Of a stretch of DNA of 32,000 bases, positions 3,912 to 31,060 are shown one piece after another; positions within the stretch are counted from its first letter, which is position 1, and each line of letters opens with the position of its first letter. The position numbers and the translations under genes are program-made. This DNA is from Formosa sp. Hel1_33_131 (lineage in GTDB: Bacteria > Bacteroidota > Bacteroidia > Flavobacteriales > Flavobacteriaceae), in contig NZ_CP017260.1 of NCBI RefSeq assembly GCF_001735745.1, positions 2,190,001 to 2,222,000 of the forward strand, in the 5' to 3' direction. The notes under the pieces were generated by a model. That model searched no databases and was not told where the DNA came from. It saw nothing but the letters and a program-made list of their open reading frames with translations.

Positions 3912-3932
3912 TATTAATAAGATATCTATCTA

Positions 3933-4262
3933 TTGGAATATTTCAAAACAATATTTTTAGAAAGTGCGGCTGGTTTTATAAAAAATTTGGATGCTAAAAC
4001 CCGAAAGAAAATATTTTATAATATTAGGTTGGCTGAAAAATCCAATGACCCTAAACTCTTTAAAAAATTAACTGATGATATTTGGGAGTTTAGAGTTCGG
4101 TTTTCAAACAATCAGATAAGATTATTGTCATTTTGGGACAAAAGAGACAACGAAAATACGTTAGTTGTTACAACAAATGGCTTTGTCAAAAAAACGCAGA
4201 AAACTCCCAAAACGGAGATTAATAAAGCGAAAAAAATAAGGAGTGAATATCTAAAATATTAA
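3933..4262 (+). CDS. RelE/ParE-superfamily toxin (Gp49/HigB-like, toxin-first module)
   Basis: 109 aa with a TTG start. The KLFKKLTDDIWEFRVRFSNNQIRLLSFWDK and GFVKKTQKTPKTEINKAKKIR pattern is typical of Gp49-like RelE toxins. An HTH antitoxin gene follows 4 nt later. Confidence 0.7.
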   Translation: MEYFKTIFLESAAGFIKNLDAKTRKKIFYNIRLAEKSNDPKLFKKLTDDIWEFRVRFSNNQIRLLSFWDKRDNENTLVVTTNGFVKKTQKTPKTEINKAKKIRSEYLKY

Positions 4263-4266
4263 GATT

Positions 4267-4587
4267 ATGACAAAATTAAAATCATACAGCTTATCCGAAA
4301 TGGAAGATAAGTATATAGGAAAGAAAGGTACTGAAGAGCGAGATGAATATGAATATGAATTGCGTATGGATTTGTTGGGTCGTATGATAAAAACCACCCG
4401 AAAAGAACGCAACTTAACTCAAGAAAAATTAGGAGAAATGATTGGCGTTAATAAATCTCAAATATCAAAACTTGAGAATAATGCAAACAGTGCTAGAATT
4501 GAAACCATAATTAGAGTGTTTAAGGCATTAAAAGCTGAAATTCAATTCAATGTAAAACTTGAAAACAACAGAGTTGAAATAGCTTAA
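4267..4587 (+). CDS. XRE-family helix-turn-helix antitoxin (HigA-like)
   Basis: 106 aa with a Cro/C1-type HTH (RKERNLTQEKLGEMIGVNKSQISKLENN). It sits immediately downstream of the RelE-like toxin. Confidence 0.75.
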   Translation: MTKLKSYSLSEMEDKYIGKKGTEERDEYEYELRMDLLGRMIKTTRKERNLTQEKLGEMIGVNKSQISKLENNANSARIETIIRVFKALKAEIQFNVKLENNRVEIA

Positions 4588-4735
4588 GCTAAACGCTTAA
4601 CAACTTATAAGTAAAACAACTCTAAAAGAGATAGAACAAGATTTTGTCCGACCCAAATTGTTACGATTTTAAAGCAGTTTGTGAAACCCCATTTAGATAA
4701 TTTGGTAGCTTAAAAACTTTTTTTATCTTAGTGGG

Positions 4736-12519: not shown

Positions 12520-13407
12520 ATGCGCGTCCAAAAATTTATTGATTACTTACTGCTAGAGAAAAAATATTCTCCACACACAGTTGTAGCCTATCAAAATGAT
12601 ATAAAAGCATTTCAAGTGTTTTTAACTCAGGAGTTTTCCGATTCAGAAGTTTCAACTGCCAATTACTCACAAATACGATCTTGGATTGTTCAACTGGTAG
12701 ATCGTACTATTTCCAATCGAACCATCAATCGAAAGATATCGTCCTTAAACAGTTATTATAAATTTTTATTGAAGACCCAATCTATTGAAACCAATCCTTT
12801 AATGAAGCATAAAGCGCTGAAGGTGAGTAAAAAGATACAAATACCCTTTTCTGAAACAGAAGTTAATTCCGTATTGAATAGTATTCAAACAGACACTTTT
12901 GAAGGATTAAGAGACAAACTTATTGTAGAGCTTTTTTATTCTACGGGGATGCGTCGCATAGAGTTGGCACAACTGCAACTCCAAGACGTTGATTTATCTC
13001 AAGGACAGATAAAGGTATTAGGAAAGCGAAATAAAGAACGCTTTATCCCGTTATTGCCTTCCGTCATGGATACGTTTGAGAGTTATCTTTCGGAACGTTT
13101 AAAGCTGGAAAGTATAAAAGACCCCTCCATTCTTTTTCTAACCAAAAAAGGAACGAAGGTCTATGAGGTGTTGGTGTATAGAATCATTACACGTTATTTT
13201 GACAGCGTTTCATCTAAAGTTAAAAAAAGTCCGCACATTTTGAGGCATTCTTTTGCGACCCATTTATTAAACAATGGCGCAGATTTAAATGCTGTTAAGG
13301 AACTTTTAGGACATTCGAGTTTGGCAGCGACTCAGGTCTATACCCACAACAGTGTTGCAGAACTCAAAAAAGTATATGAAAAATCACACCCTAGGAATTT
13401 ATCCTAG
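12520..13407 (+). CDS. Tyrosine recombinase, XerC/XerD-like
   Basis: 295 aa with an N-terminal SAM-like core-binding domain. The catalytic region has GMRRIEL (Arg), HILRHSFATHLL (H-x-x-R) and LLGHSSLAATQVYTH (His/Tyr). Confidence 0.85.
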   Translation: MRVQKFIDYLLLEKKYSPHTVVAYQNDIKAFQVFLTQEFSDSEVSTANYSQIRSWIVQLVDRTISNRTINRKISSLNSYYKFLLKTQSIETNPLMKHKALKVSKKIQIPFSETEVNSVLNSIQTDTFEGLRDKLIVELFYSTGMRRIELAQLQLQDVDLSQGQIKVLGKRNKERFIPLLPSVMDTFESYLSERLKLESIKDPSILFLTKKGTKVYEVLVYRIITRYFDSVSSKVKKSPHILRHSFATHLLNNGADLNAVKELLGHSSLAATQVYTHNSVAELKKVYEKSHPRNLS

Positions 13408-13436: not shown

Positions 13437-13739
13437 ATGAAAGTACACACACAATCCGTTAATTTTCATGCCGATCAAAAATTAATTGACTTTATTCAGA
13501 AACGAATGGACAAATTAGATTTATTTTTTGATAAAATCATTAAATCAAATGTTTATTTGAAGGTCGAAAATACATCCGCAAAAGAAAATAAAATATTTGA
13601 AGTTCAGCTCTCCATCCCTGGTGATATCATCGTTATAAAGAAGGTTTCTAAGACTTTTGAAGAGGGATTAGATGCTGCTGTACATTCATTAGAAAGACAG
13701 TTAAAAAAGCGAAAAGAAAAATTAAGACAATTTTCGTGA
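13437..13739 (+). CDS. hpf: Ribosome hibernation promoting factor / RaiA family (short form)
   Basis: 100 aa; the pattern MKVHTQSVNFHADQKLIDFIQKRMDKL ... DAAVHSLERQLKKRKEK is typical of HPF/YfiA. Confidence 0.85.
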   Translation: MKVHTQSVNFHADQKLIDFIQKRMDKLDLFFDKIIKSNVYLKVENTSAKENKIFEVQLSIPGDIIVIKKVSKTFEEGLDAAVHSLERQLKKRKEKLRQFS

Positions 13740-13758
13740 AAATTTTACAAAAAATGTT

Positions 13759-13787
13759 TTGAAACAAGAAAAATATATATACATTTG
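13759..13787 (+). promoter_or_regulatory. Putative promoter of the tRNA-tuf operon (-33 TTG / -7 TAnnTTTG)
   Basis: TTG at 13759-13761, an 18-nt spacer, then TACATTTG at 13780-13787, about 50 nt before tRNA-Thr. Confidence 0.5.
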
Positions 13788-13839
13788 CAGTCCGTTAGAA
13801 ATAGCGGGCTTTTTTAGTGCCTAATTGTACTGAGGAAAA

Positions 13840-13913
13840 GCCGATGTAGCTCAGCTGGCTAGAGCAGCTGATTTGTAATCAGCAGGTCGTGGGTTCGAGT
13901 CCCTCCATCGGCT
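13840..13913 (+). tRNA. tRNA-Thr (anticodon UGU)
   Basis: Hand-folded cloverleaf: acceptor GCCGATG/CATCGGC, D-arm GCTC-AGCTGGCTA-GAGC, anticodon arm GCTGA-TTTGTAA-TCAGC, T-loop TTCGAGT. There is one U-U mismatch in the T-stem. No CCA is encoded. Confidence 0.85.
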
Positions 13914-14006
13914 CTGAAATATTGAATAGCGCACAGGGAGTTAAAAGAATGTAATACACATTGTTTTAGCTTGGGACGAGAAGTTTATCCTGAGTGTCGT
14001 CGAAGG

Positions 14007-14024
14007 GAGTCCCTCCATCGGCTC
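14007..14024 (+). repeat. Orphan copy of the tRNA-Thr(UGU) 3' end (att-like direct repeat)
   Basis: GAGTCCCTCCATCGGCTC at 14007-14024 is identical to 13897-13914, which is the T-loop 3' part, the acceptor 3' strand and one further base of tRNA-Thr. Confidence 0.8.
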
Positions 14025-14060
14025 AAGTTCTTTTAAAGAGTGAAATATAATTTAAATTGA

Positions 14061-14142
<82 letters not shown>

Positions 14143-14171
14143 CATTTTGAATGAATGGATTAAATTAAATT

Positions 14172-14244
14172 GCGAGAGTAGCTCAGTTGGTAGAGCGTCA
14201 GCCTTCCAAGCTGAATGTCGCCGGTTCGAACCCGGTCTCTCGCT
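14172..14244 (+). tRNA. tRNA-Gly (anticodon UCC)
   Basis: Acceptor GCGAGAG/CTCTCGC, anticodon arm TCAGC-CTTCCAA-GCTGA, and T-arm GCCGG-TTCGAAC-CCGGT. Confidence 0.9.
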
Positions 14245-14257
14245 CAAGGCGAATGTT

Positions 14258-14275
14258 GTCACGCTTCGGCGTGAC
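14258..14275 (+). other. Perfect hairpin in the tRNA-Gly/tRNA-Thr spacer
   Basis: GTCACGC-TTCG-GCGTGAC (7-bp stem, 4-nt loop). It shares its core, TCACGC..GCGTGA, with the hairpin in each unit of the tRNA-Trp-derived array. Confidence 0.7.
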
Positions 14276-14294
14276 CTTTCGCTCTATTTTTTTG

Positions 14295-14366
14295 GCCGGT
14301 GTAGCTCAGGGGTAGAGCGTTTCCTTGGTAAGGAAGAGGCCACGGGTTCAATTCCCGTCATTGGCT
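14295..14366 (+). tRNA. tRNA-Thr (anticodon GGU)
   Basis: Acceptor GCCGGTG/CATTGGC (two G-U pairs), anticodon arm TTTCC-TTGGTAA-GGAAG, and T-arm ACGGG-TTCAATT-CCCGT. Confidence 0.85.
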
Positions 14367-14440
14367 CTTTTTTTTGATTAAATGAATTGAATATAATAAG
14401 ATTACTAAATATTAATATAACTAAGAATAAATTTTAAAAC

Positions 14441-15628
14441 ATGGCAAAGGCAACTTTCGATCGTTCAAAACCACACTTAAACATTGGTACCATTGGACAC
14501 GTAGATCACGGTAAAACAACTTTAACTGCTGCTATTACTAAAGTATTAGCTGATGCAGGTTTCTCAGAAGCAAGATCATTCGATCAGATTGATAATGCTC
14601 CAGAAGAAAAAGAAAGAGGTATCACAATTAATACTTCTCACGTAGAATATGCAACAGCAAATCGTCATTACGCTCACGTTGACTGTCCAGGTCACGCGGA
14701 TTACGTAAAGAACATGGTTACTGGTGCTGCACAAATGGATGGTGCGATCTTAGTAGTTGCTGCTACAGATGGTCCTATGCCACAAACTCGTGAGCACATC
14801 CTTTTAGGACGCCAAGTTGGTATTCCAAGAATGGTTGTATTTTTAAATAAAGTTGACATGGTTGACGATGAAGAGCTTTTAGAGCTTGTTGACATGGAAG
14901 TAAGAGATTTATTAAACTTTTACGATTACGATGGTGATAATGGACCTGTTGTATCAGGATCTGCACTTGGAGCTCTTAACGGAGAGAAAAAGTGGGTTGA
15001 TTCTGTATTAGAGCTTATGGAAGCTGTTGATGTATGGATTGAATTACCAGTTCGTGATGTTGAAAAAGATTTCTTAATGCCTATTGAAGATGTATTCTCA
15101 ATTACAGGTCGTGGTACAGTTGCTACGGGTAGAATTGAAACGGGTATCGCAAATACTGGAGATCCTGTTGAGATTATCGGTATGGGTGCTGAAAAATTAA
15201 ACTCTACGATTACAGGAATTGAAATGTTCCGTCAAATATTAGATAGAGGTGAAGCTGGAGATAATGCAGGTATCTTATTAAGAGGTATTGAAAAATCACA
15301 GATTTCTAGAGGTATGGTTATTACCAAGCCAGGTTCAGTAACTCCACATGCTAAATTCAAAGCTGAGGTTTATATCCTTAAAAAAGAAGAAGGTGGACGT
15401 CACACTCCATTCCATACAAACTACCGTCCACAGTTTTATGTGCGTACAACAGATGTTACAGGAAATATTGCTTTACCATCAGGAGTAGAAATGGTAATGC
15501 CAGGAGATAACTTGACAATTGAGGTTGATTTAATTCAAGCAATTGCAATGCATGTTGGACTTCGTTTTGCGATTCGTGAAGGTGGTAGAACTGTAGGTGC
15601 AGGTCAGGTGACTGAGATTTTAGACTAA
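14441..15628 (+). CDS. tuf: Translation elongation factor Tu
   Basis: 395 aa with [18 protein letters not shown] and NKVD GTPase motifs, and EF-Tu-like sequence over the full length. Confidence 0.98.
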
Positions 15629-15650
15629 TATTATTAGACTAATACTTGTA

Positions 15651-15678
15651 AAGGTGTCTCGATTTATCGAGATACCTT
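15651..15678 (+). terminator. Stem-loop after tuf (possible attenuator or processing hairpin)
   Basis: AAGGTGTCTCGA (15651-15662) / TCGAGATACCTT (15667-15678): a 12-bp stem with one G-U pair and a TTTA loop. No strong T-run follows, so read-through is likely. Confidence 0.4.
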
Positions 15679-15689
15679 AACTTGTATTT

Positions 15690-16219
15690 ACGGGTTTAGC
15701 TCAGTTGGTATCACGCCTAAGGCGTGACAAAACCAGGGAGTTGAATTTAAAAAGATTGAAAGACTAGAGCATAGTAATTGATGTTAGAGTCGAATACGGG
15801 TTTAGCTCAGTTGGTATCACGCCTAAGGCGTGACAAAACCAGGGAGTTGAATTTGAAAAGATTGAAAGACTAGAGCATAGTAATTGATGTTAGAGTCGAA
15901 TACGGGTTTAGCTCAGTTGGTATCACGCCTAAGGCGTGACAAAACCAGAGAGTTGAATTTGAAAAGATTGAAAGACTAGAGCATAGTAATTGATGTTAGA
16001 GTCGAATACGGGTTTAGCTCAGTTGGTATCACGCCTAAGGCGTGACAAAACCAGAGAGTTGAATTTGAAAAGATTGAAAGACTAGAGCATAGTAATTGAT
16101 GTTAGAGTCGAATACGGGTTTAGCTCAGTTGGTATCACGCCTAAGGCGTGACAAAACCAGAGAGTTGAATTTGAAAAGATTGAAAGACTAGAGCATAGTA
16201 ATTGATGTTAGAGTCGAAT
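15690..16219 (+). repeat. Tandem array of five 106-bp tRNA-Trp-derived pseudo-units
   Basis: Unit starts are at 15690, 15796, 15902, 16008 and 16114, an exact 106-bp period. Units differ at only two positions. Each begins with ACGGGTTTAGCTCAGTTGGTA, identical to nt 1-21 of the adjacent tRNA-Trp gene. Confidence 0.95.
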
Positions 16220-16292
16220 ACGGGTTTAGCTCAGTTGGTAGAGCACTGGTCTCCAAAACCAGGTGTCGGGAGTTCGAGTCTCTCAACCCGTG
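16220..16292 (+). tRNA. tRNA-Trp (anticodon CCA)
   Basis: Acceptor ACGGGTT/AACCCGT with G discriminator, D-arm GCTC-AGTTGGTA-GAGC, anticodon arm CTGGT-CTCCAAA-ACCAG, and T-arm GGGAG-TTCGAGT-CTCTC. Confidence 0.92.
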
Positions 16293-16367
16293 CTAGGTAA
16301 TTGGAGAAGTGAAACAACTTTAGTGAAACCGAATAGTAAGCGTACTCAAATTAAAAAATATAAGACA

Positions 16368-16562
16368 ATGGCAGGTATAGTAGAATATGTAAAAGAATCA
16401 TTTGGAGAACTTAAAAACAATGTAAGTTGGCCAACATGGGCTGAAGGACAAAGTCTAACAGTACTTGTGGCGGTTTTTTCAATTATATTTTCTCTAGCTA
16501 TATGGGGTGTGGATACGGTATTCGCAGGTGTTATTGAAGAATATTTTAACTGGATCAAATAA
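16368..16562 (+). CDS. secE: Preprotein translocase subunit SecE
   Basis: 64 aa from the ATG at 16368 (MAGIVEYVKESFGELKNNVSWPTW...), with one C-terminal TM helix and the conserved position before nusG. The 16263 start in the ORF track lies inside tRNA-Trp and is rejected. Confidence 0.9.
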   Translation: MAGIVEYVKESFGELKNNVSWPTWAEGQSLTVLVAVFSIIFSLAIWGVDTVFAGVIEEYFNWIK

Positions 16563-16570
16563 TACTACTG

Positions 16571-17143
16571 ATGGAAGAGACTAAAGTTGAACAAACTAAA
16601 GTAGAGAAGAAGTGGTATGTTGTTCGTGCAGTAAGTGGACAAGAGAACAAAATCAAAGCCTATATCGAAAATGAAATTTCGCGTTTAGGTTTAGAAGCTT
16701 TTGTAGAGCAAGTTTTAGTGCCTACTGAAAAAGTGATCCAAATTAGAAAAGGTAAAAAAGTTCAAAAAGAAAAAGTATACTTCCCTGGTTATATAATGGT
16801 ACAAGCGAATCTTAGTGGTGAAATTCCTCACATTATAAAGTCAATTACAAACGTGATTGGTTTTTTAGGTGAAACTAAAGGAGGAGAGCCAGTGCCCTTA
16901 CGTCAATCAGAAGTAAACAGAATGTTAGGTAAAGTAGATGAACTGTCATTAGAAGCAGATCAAAACGTTGCCATTCCTTTTGTAAAAGGAGAAACAGTCA
17001 AAGTGATCGACGGTCCATTTAATGGATTTGATGGTACTGTAGAAAACATCAATGAAGAAAAACGCAAGCTTGAAGTCATGGTGAAGATTTTTGGAAGAAA
17101 AACACCATTAGAATTAAGTTATATGCAAGTAGATAAAATTTAA
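16571..17143 (+). CDS. nusG: Transcription termination/antitermination factor NusG
   Basis: 190 aa with an NGN domain (KKWYVVRAVSGQENK) and a C-terminal KOW motif (GETVKVIDGPFNGFDGTV). Confidence 0.95.
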   Translation: MEETKVEQTKVEKKWYVVRAVSGQENKIKAYIENEISRLGLEAFVEQVLVPTEKVIQIRKGKKVQKEKVYFPGYIMVQANLSGEIPHIIKSITNVIGFLGETKGGEPVPLRQSEVNRMLGKVDELSLEADQNVAIPFVKGETVKVIDGPFNGFDGTVENINEEKRKLEVMVKIFGRKTPLELSYMQVDKI

Positions 17144-30978: not shown

Positions 30979-31060
30979 GTATTAAATTTTGTTTTTCAAA
31001 ATAATATCACAAAAAACAAAATAATTTTACACAAAAAACAGATACTTAATCAGGCTGTAC

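Follow-up and report, generated by a model that had tools for sequence, protein, structure and literature searches.

A tandem array of tRNA-Trp-linked repeats between tuf and tRNA-Trp in Formosa sp. Hel1_33_131 and its counterparts in Flavobacteriaceae

Repeats linked to tRNA genes have reportedly been known in Escherichia coli since 1978, and neither their origin nor their function is said to be understood; the 178-bp repeat of tyrT was reportedly treated by Egan and Landy in 1978 and by Rudd in 1999. In E. coli, 22 such tRNA-linked repeats (TLRs) are placed at 10 loci within tRNA or rRNA operons, with 1-5 per locus, and each of them terminates in 18-19 bp that are identical to the 3′ end of the upstream gene (PMC8144298). 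They are without known function; three of them, linked to rrn operons, bind Hfq and CsrA in vitro (PMC8144298). Here, a stretch of 32,000 nucleotides of Formosa sp. Hel1_33_131 (Flavobacteriaceae; contig NZ_CP017260.1, positions 2,190,001 to 2,222,000, hereafter the window) was analyzed, in which five tandem 106-bp units are located between tuf and tRNA-Trp(CCA), each of them opening with the 5′ end of that tRNA. Judged by analogy, this Trp array is the same kind of object as the TLRs of E. coli, with a mirror-image polarity. The reading that we prefer, as probable though not firm, is that of a tandemly amplified tRNA-linked repeat, which is dispensable and most likely without an essential function of its own.

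The likeness to the TLRs extends to several features. The Trp array directly adjoins a tRNA within a tRNA operon, each repeat holds an exact copy of ~18-21 nt from one end of the adjacent tRNA, and the repeats stand in tandem, that is, 1-5 per locus in E. coli, and five in the window with 0-2 in its relatives. In both cases, the interior is a rearranged tRNA remnant with no established function, and each repeat carries a short basic open reading frame (ORF), which is the protamine-like tpr in E. coli and a 31-aa TTG frame here. The differences concern primarily the polarity: the Trp array copies the 5′ end of the tRNA (21 nt) and is positioned upstream of it, whereas the TLRs copy the 3′ end and are positioned downstream. 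Moreover, no match to the Rfam family RtT was found (E<=10 in window positions 13500-17000; E<=1 in five related loci), the host belongs to the Bacteroidota, and the unit is built on a perfect GC hairpin that is common to other repeats of the operon. Because of the reversed polarity and the missing RtT match, the Trp array should not be filed under RtT. The tyrT-tyrV region of E. coli K-12 (L116; compared contigs and loci are cited by such labels) served as a control. It showed the 178-bp repeat in 3.1 copies plus one copy between tyrT and tyrV, six copies of a 19-mer of the tRNA-Tyr 3′ end, the small tpr ORF, and four matches to RtT (RF00391) of 133-137 bits. The first-pass annotation of the window had recognized no described element with this architecture; the TLRs are a precedent, in the opposite polarity (PMC8144298).

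Tandem Repeats Finder returned one strong array (15689-16240; period 106, 5.2 copies, 99% matches, no indels), and the units occupy 530 bp (15690-16219) of the 591-bp tuf to tRNA-Trp spacer. With the tRNA gene placed by ARAGORN, the five units, the length of the spacer, and all coordinates and sequence statements given earlier proved correct. In all five units (table 1), the first 21 nt are exactly those of tRNA-Trp and TCACGCCTAAGGCGTGA comes next, and the sixth repeat start is the first 21 nt of the real gene. The exact head and the perfect hairpin TCACGCC-TAA-GGCGTGA in every unit were likewise confirmed; in RNA form, the hairpin reads GUCACGCC-UAA-GGCGUGAC. The 17-mer TCACGCCTAAGGCGTGA has 10 matches over both strands of the window versus 0.04 expected. 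Differences among the units are limited to position 48 (G, G, A, A, A) and position 60 (A, G, G, G, G).

None of the units is detected as a cloverleaf by ARAGORN or by the Rfam tRNA model, even at E<=10, and the only gene found is the real one at 16220. Rfam searches at E<=10 over window positions 13500-17000, and of five related loci, gave tRNAs and noise only. In a plain global or local alignment, unit positions 22-106 show no significant similarity to the tRNA and its trailer (z 0.67; local p ~0.14). On near-colinear diagonals only, the longest exact run is 10 nt (p 0.0012) and the summed runs amount to 24 nt (p 0.0002). In detail, these are CAAAACCAGG (10 nt), GGGAGTT, and GTAATTG, the last one in the trailer. 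Since the near-colinear runs are significant, the descent of the unit from tRNA-Trp plus trailer is supported. The earlier view that tRNA homology resumes past the head thus stands for the near-colinear runs and fails for plain alignment. The companion proposal, that colinear decayed copies were amplified after the decay, is supported by the comparison of the units and by the same runs, which point to colinear, rebuilt copies of tRNA-Trp and its trailer that were amplified after diverging from the gene. A simple tandem duplication, with the GGTA of the D-loop and that of a tuf-terminator hairpin as its two ends, was considered as the origin and rejected, because the sequence after the hairpin does not fit its prediction.

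As stated earlier, the array is non-coding: the period of 106 is not a multiple of three, and the longest ORF is the 31-aa TTG frame, found once per unit. This basic frame (MMLESNTGLAQLVSRLRRDKTRELNLKRLKD; window 15778-15873 to 16191) spans the unit boundary. A CRISPR array is also ruled out, in agreement with the first reading, because the units are contiguous and 99% identical over 106 bp; the lone match to a CRISPR direct repeat is noise (E 9.8).

Relatives were found through an exact look-up of SecE, NusG, and a neighboring transporter protein in public assemblies, which provided ~25 distinct metagenome contigs of one population, 97-100% identical to the window. Most of them contain one unit. 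Two units are present in L005, L007, L091, L093, and L119, in which the variants differ and stand in different orders. There are no units in L096 (99.25% identical over secE-nusG-rplK) nor in the 95%-identical L001 and L004, and these contigs show a clean junction, i.e., tuf, 61 nt, and tRNA-Trp. In L096 the units are absent, yet SecE and NusG are identical to those of the window. The copy-number variation suspected at first pass is therefore real at the level of 0, 1, or 2 units in contigs that are 97-100% identical to the window.

Sister lineages (L102, L106, L109, L114, and L115) are ~88-91% identical to the window over secE-nusG-rplK; in the last 600 nt of tuf, the identity is ~93%. They have either a single unit or two that have diverged, 104-105 nt in length, and the unit is absent from L001, L004, and L011. 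It follows that the unit is older than the species of the window and has been repeatedly lost and amplified. The spacers of the relatives thus carry 0, 1, or 2 units, and the unit is not private to the strain, which had been the concern at first pass. The exact unit-to-unit junction pattern gave 0 matches in metagenome contigs; the two-unit sister lineages differ at the junction. Third-codon divergence from L106, L114, and L115 is 22-40% in mid-tuf, 10% in its last 150 nt (15478-15628), and 8% in secE (16369-16562). This low divergence around the tRNA-Trp locus suggests recombination or an unusual constraint.

The unit could be real and the count of five an assembly artifact, by over-expansion or mis-resolution. 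All other contigs have at most two units, units 3-5 are mutually identical, and the short-read contig L100 breaks at the repeat, starting exactly at a unit start. Against this, three distinct unit variants stand in ordered blocks within the window, from which we argue that at least three units are real. Contigs that resemble long-read assemblies resolve one and two copies with different variants, so that real copy-number variation exists. Since Flye-style names and frameshifted genes, as expected of long-read assemblies, are seen in many of these contigs, the difference between one and two units is unlikely to be a collapse artifact. Errors of short-read assembly on repeats are usually collapses and not expansions. 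An artifactual count is regarded as quite improbable.

According to the preferred reading of a dispensable, tandemly amplified repeat, the array would have originated from one 106-bp pseudo-copy of tRNA-Trp and its trailer, directly upstream of the real gene and rebuilt around a GC hairpin module that is also present in other tRNA-linked repeats of the operon. As the anatomy and the polymorphism suggest, units would be gained and lost by unequal crossing-over or replication slippage; the 106 bp common to neighboring units, and the 21 bp common to the last unit and the gene, would allow whole units to be added or removed. Such exchanges would yield 0, 1, 2, or 5 copies among nearly identical strains, and they may also hold the 21-nt block identical to the selected tRNA sequence. 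The empty sites of L096 and L001 support this reading, because a deletion through the direct repeat would leave them, and a dispensable element is favored since the units are present or absent among strains with identical SecE and NusG. The array is presumably co-transcribed with tuf, tRNA-Trp, and secE-nusG, because a promoter would not fit into the 62-nt spacer of array-less species. Each unit is predicted to fold, in the sense RNA, into a ~24-bp hairpin that ties up the tRNA-like 5′ strand, and a cut by RNase P at the true 5′ end would free the tRNA from the array. The independent behavior of the repeats at tRNA-Gly and tRNA-Thr, the recurrence in Flavobacteriaceae, the layout of E. coli tyrT, and the sense fold also speak for this reading, as does the apparent lack of a mobile-element signature, the only nearby recombinase (12520-13407) being present in empty-site relatives too.

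A sigma-70-type promoter scan, which does not cover the promoters of Bacteroidota, gave 11 sites versus 10.1 expected. The promoter-like site TTGAAA-17-CATAGT of units 2-5 is weak (9/12).

Several observations weigh against a dispensable repeat. Five units are known from the window only, with 0, 1, or 2 in every related contig, and the co-transcription, folding, and processing of the array are all inferred. The unit is kept in lineages down to ~88-91% identity over secE-nusG-rplK, and from that of the L106 lineage it differs in 4/85 nt, where tuf third positions differ in 19-21% overall; as the local background is only 8-10%, this low divergence need not reflect purifying selection. At a greater distance, the 17-nt hairpin of the window is 17/17 identical in L104, in another arrangement, and nearly identical in L103, which shares the first 45 nt of the unit and not the rest. 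Because the hairpin module is kept in these two loci despite a difference of ~39% in tuf third-codon positions, it is either constrained in its sequence or mobile, which speaks against pure junk, and its conservation across genera keeps a functional reading open.

The minimum free energy fold of the unit consists of a 12-bp outer stem (CGGGUUUAGCUC with GAGUUGAAUUUG, including five G.U pairs), a 5-bp stem (UUGGU/ACCAG), and a 7-bp GC cap. Its energy is -35.5 kcal/mol (z -6.2) on the sense strand versus -20.6 on the minus strand. When positions 1-38 are held fixed and the remainder is shuffled, the unit fold has p ~0.002 and the contiguous 12-bp run p ~0.006. The G.U-rich complement GAGUUGAAUUUG pairs with the tRNA-like 5′ strand, though the 3′ acceptor sequence of the tRNA is lacking. 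The first-pass statement that no unit regains a 3′ acceptor strand is thus right for the sequence and incomplete for the pairing. The segment that had been called a T-arm remnant stands as a colinear remnant and, as follows from the predicted fold, is also the 3′ strand of the long sense-strand hairpin, and hence the partner of the tRNA-like head.

This fold is at the center of a second explanation, in which the units are functional structured RNAs, released from a tuf-tRNA-Trp precursor by RNase P, III, or E, with a dose set by the copy number. As ~60-nt hairpins, they could form a processing or insulating module between the tuf mRNA and tRNA-Trp/secE-nusG, or stabilize the 3′ end of tuf. By analogy with the proposal for the small RNAs of rrn-linked TLRs, they could also act as a sponge for a protein that recognizes the GUCACGCC hairpin. 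In accordance with a function, the fold needs the five G.U pairs of the sense strand and its counterpart on the opposite strand is much weaker, the outer helix of 12 bp has the length of an acceptor/T-stem minihelix, and a U is located at position -1 of each unit start as it is at the real tRNA, which would suit RNase P. The hairpin stem is kept across genera and between the Gly and Trp units with varying loops (UUCG, GAAA, UAA), and single-sided changes in relatives preserve the pairing (U8.G to U8-A, U12-A to U12.G, and C23-G to U23.G). There is also the precedent of small RNAs derived from TLRs (PMC8144298). On the other hand, the units are missing from L096, with its identical SecE and NusG, and from the sister lineages L001, L004, and L011, and the searches of the window region and of the five related loci gave no Rfam match for the units. 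Covariation in an alignment of 11 window-type units is not above controls (61/500 shuffles as good), with too little variation among the units, and RNAalifold on the CCTG-type sister family supports two local hairpins only. The wider notion of a sequestered tRNA-like strand in each of the families of 5′ pseudo-copies was examined by a duplex-energy test on 11 family representatives and was unsupported as a general rule (Fisher p 0.10), which also counts against a functional RNA. On balance, functional units are considered a possible explanation, though a doubtful one.

The Trp array does not stand alone. The same operon contains analogues at tRNA-Gly and tRNA-Thr, and other tRNA-Trp 5′ pseudo-copies exist in many Flavobacteriaceae. 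The tRNA-Gly-linked unit of 39 nt, located after tRNA-Gly, begins with GCGAAUG, which resembles an acceptor 5′ strand. The hairpin TCACGC-TTCG-GCGTGA replaces the T arm, and the 3′ end of tRNA-Gly is present as a copy. The hairpin stem of the Trp units recurs in this unit (14259-14274) and in the tRNA-Trp pseudo-units of other genera. In close relatives, the Gly unit is found in 0, 1, 2, or 3 tandem copies. The insert of 93 nt after tRNA-Thr(TGT) terminates in an 18-nt copy of the tRNA 3′ end (14007-14024), as the TLR definition has it, and is present in 0 or 1 copy among the close relatives. The Trp, Gly, and Thr repeats change their copy number independently of each other.

Further observations were made on the companion repeats. 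The Gly unit resembles a tRNA-Gly minihelix and includes the variable-loop sequence GAAUGUCG; Gelidibacter maritimus and G. japonicus have three diverged copies, related units are found in L031, L035, L107, and L114, and the Gly-linked sites compared include L007 2116-2232 and L074 905-1040. A conserved module, GAGAAGTTTATSCTGAGCNNAGTCGAAG, is located 3′ of tRNA-Thr(TGT), tRNA-Gly, and tRNA-Trp in many genera (L014, L015, L032, L044 at three sites, L046, L062, L066, L070, L075, L076, L086, L089, L104, L111, and L113). A 17-18-nt copy of the 3′ end of that same tRNA always comes after it, and the 5 nt in front of it are the complement of the copied T-stem strand (GGGAC/GTCCC, GAGAC/GTCTC, GAGGC/GCCTC). 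A compensatory change of CC..GG to GC..GC occurs within the module. This module has no Rfam match and 0 matches in viral contigs. The E. coli TLRs and the flavobacterial 3′-type module have a common layout, i.e., the 5′ strand of the T-stem, GAGAAG, an insert ending in ..GAGT, and the 3′ strands of T-stem and acceptor. This reads GGAAGGAT-GAGAAGC...GCTGAGT-AATCCTTCC in E. coli and GGGAC-GAGAAGT...GGGAGT-CCC in the window (13973-14024). Chance could account for the agreement, as could a mechanism of T-loop interruption common to both.

The tuf to tRNA-Trp spacer was measured at 87 loci, 77 of which came from 80 Flavobacteriaceae species found through NusG. In ~60 of the 87 the spacer is 59-68 nt long and consists of a hairpin and GACTTGTATTT before tRNA-Trp. 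Longer spacers occur in ~13 species, and in most of them the first 9-14 nt repeat the 5′ end of tRNA-Trp and a GC hairpin comes next, so that, with the window, 5′ copies of 9-21 nt plus a hairpin recur at the same site. An unbiased pattern search in metagenomes (ACGGGTTTA, 85-115 nt, tRNA-Trp) provided 15 further loci of several types. Tandem arrays of pseudo-units exist in L102, L105, L112, and L115; in L105, for instance, the pseudo-units number three and belong to two types, and in L112 a tandem is formed by two unlike units. A further hairpin module, TCCCGATA-N-TATCGGGA, was observed as the core of the tuf terminator in several species (L044, L078, and L041), nested within the terminator loop of the tuf to tRNA-Trp spacer in L080, and inside the D-loop of tRNA-Trp pseudo-copies in L071, L112, and L105.

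The patchy distribution across genera is also what a mobile element might produce. In this explanation the units are footprints of a tRNA-targeting element, either a small palindromic module (TCACGC..GCGTGA) that inserts into tRNA copies, or an integrative element whose attachment site overlapped the 5′ part of the tRNA and whose scar includes the 21-nt repeats as attachment (att) or target-site duplications. Direct repeats of tRNA ends bound the insert, with lengths of 21 nt in the window, 9-14 nt at the same site in other species, and 17-18 nt where the 3′ end is repeated downstream of tRNAs. The position of the hairpin varies: it comes after nt 21 in the window and after nt 9 and CCTG in L044 and L104, whereas the Gly unit has it instead of a T arm. 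Scars of integrative elements show a direct repeat of a tRNA segment that flanks the inserted DNA beside an intact tRNA (PMC9897764), and the direct repeats next to the intact tRNA-Trp are alike in this respect. However, att repeats are normally of the 3′ part of the tRNA and bracket kilobases of DNA with an integrase, whereas the Trp array repeats the 5′ part in tandem, with 85 nt between repeats and no element genes.

No terminal inverted repeats were found, nor any copy of the unit elsewhere in the 32-kb window, as would be features of insertion sequences or miniature inverted-repeat transposable elements. No integrase or transposase is specific to filled sites; the XerC/D-like tyrosine recombinase gene is found at empty sites too. 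Exact searches of viral contigs with the hairpin plus flank, and with the 3′ module, gave 0 matches, and two units queried by BLASTN found no match in the phage and plasmid collections. In these searches the units match no Rfam family, phage, or plasmid, and within the window they show no sign of an insertion sequence or miniature element; a known family of the Rfam, insertion-sequence, or miniature-element kind had been named at first pass as a possible match. In 597 kb of related sequence (95 loci), all hairpins of the form CACG[CT]-N3-8-[GA]CGTG (17/17) are within 250 nt of a tRNA gene, never away from tRNA flanks, and several of the 17 are the tuf terminator hairpin; within the window, the unit hairpin is at the tRNA-Gly and tRNA-Trp flanks only. 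Loops of 3-7 nt are also unfit for the double-stranded core site of a recombinase. The two variants of a mobile origin are jointly regarded as very unlikely. A likeness to repetitive extragenic palindromic sequences (REPs) and the mosaic elements composed of them (BIMEs) was also noted, since these, too, are short hairpins rich in GC that lie between the genes of highly expressed operons, in transcribed DNA, and are sometimes clustered. REPs, in contrast, are scattered over the whole genome in hundreds of copies, without a tie to tRNA ends, whereas this hairpin was found only by tRNAs in the 597 kb of related sequence.

A broader claim would unite these repeats as a family of RNA modules in the tRNA operons of Flavobacteriaceae, built on hairpins of conserved sequence and mimicking tRNA ends, which would be processed to dosage-dependent small RNAs and would not be junk. 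Its members would be the 5′-type at tRNA-Trp, the minihelix-like type at tRNA-Gly, and the 3′-type at tRNA-Thr, tRNA-Gly, and tRNA-Trp, the last with the core GAGAAGUUUAUSCUGAGCNNAGUCGAAG. They might titrate a hairpin-binding protein or RNase, or tune the output of tRNA-Trp/secE-nusG. We consider such a family rather unlikely. If true, its members would be counterparts of the unexplained TLRs of E. coli, and tRNA-linked repeats would be a cross-phylum class of functional elements.

The same kind of object as the TLRs thus appears in a distant phylum, and the 5′ side of a tRNA can be used besides the 3′ side. Units are gained and lost in a natural population at >99% identity, and the Trp array belongs to a broader set of tRNA-end repeats in Flavobacteriaceae that is so far undescribed. 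Searches of the literature, made for the module sequences and for repeats at tuf/tRNA-Trp/secE in flavobacteria, returned nothing. The locus offers a tractable comparative system, in which the copy number is 0, 1, 2, or 5 while the backgrounds are otherwise identical, and in which one site hosts several independent families. It allows one to ask if recombination at tRNA genes yields such repeats as neutral by-products, or if they are regulatory RNAs that arise by processing. In practice, the array is a length-variable marker, and also a place where short-read assemblies break or collapse within a gene cluster that is among the most conserved of those used for phylogeny.

Table 1. Positions of the array units, the neighboring genes and the accompanying elements in the window
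Feature	Position	Strand	Basis or remark
Unit 1	15690..15795	+	Variant G48 A60
Unit 2	15796..15901	+	Variant G48 G60; form present as lone unit in most relatives
Unit 3	15902..16007	+	Variant A48 G60; A48 seen in no other contig
Unit 4	16008..16113	+	Identical to unit 3
Unit 5	16114..16219	+	Identical to unit 3; abuts the real tRNA
Hairpin module TCACGCC-TAA-GGCGTGA, perfect	15923..15939 (unit 3); also at 15711, 15817, 16029, 16135	+	
Predicted sense-strand RNA hairpin of unit 3 (unit positions 2-60)	15903..15961	+	Minimum free energy fold
TLR-like element after tRNA-Thr(TGT)	13915..14024	+	Contains module GAGAAGTTTATCCTGAG..GTCGAAGG
39-nt tRNA-Gly-linked unit	14246..14284 (hairpin 14259-14274)	+	Sequence comparison
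tuf (EF-Tu), upstream of array	14441..15628	+	395-aa ORF; Pfam GTP_EFTU domains on identical gene in related contigs
Terminator-like or stabilizing hairpin AAGGTGTCTCGA-TTTA-TCGAGATACCTT after tuf	15651..15678	+	12-pair stem, terminator scan
Functional tRNA-Trp(CCA)	16220..16292 (or 16293)	+	ARAGORN; Rfam tRNA 68.8 bits
25-nt lineage-specific insert GTGAAACAACTTTAGTGAAACCGAA in tRNA-Trp trailer	16309..16333	+	Spacer comparison
secE	16369..16562	+	Downstream context
nusG	16571-17143		Downstream context

The gene order in the window is tRNA-Thr(TGT), tRNA-Tyr, tRNA-Gly(TCC), tRNA-Thr(GGT), tuf, tRNA-Trp(CCA), secE, nusG, rplKAJL, and rpoB. The hairpin behind tuf is followed by AACTTGTATTT and then by unit 1, and a hairpin of the same form is located at the equivalent site in the species whose spacers were read. 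The 25-nt insert in the tRNA-Trp to secE trailer has a GTGAAAC direct repeat; it is missing in the 95%-identical L001 and L004 and altered in L096. The identity of this trailer between lineages is only 57-61%, while secE is 96-97% identical. Other repeats returned by Tandem Repeats Finder are at 2353-2387 (17 nt x 2.1), 30997-31040 (22 nt x 2.1), and, just 5′ of tuf, 14376-14432 (24 nt x 2.3). Finally, a Gp49/helix-turn-helix pair, similar to the HigB/HigA toxin-antitoxin system, was placed at window ~3930-4590 by homology to L117 4940-5594. The pair is also found in relatives, some of which (L118, L125) have extra genes nearby, including RadC.

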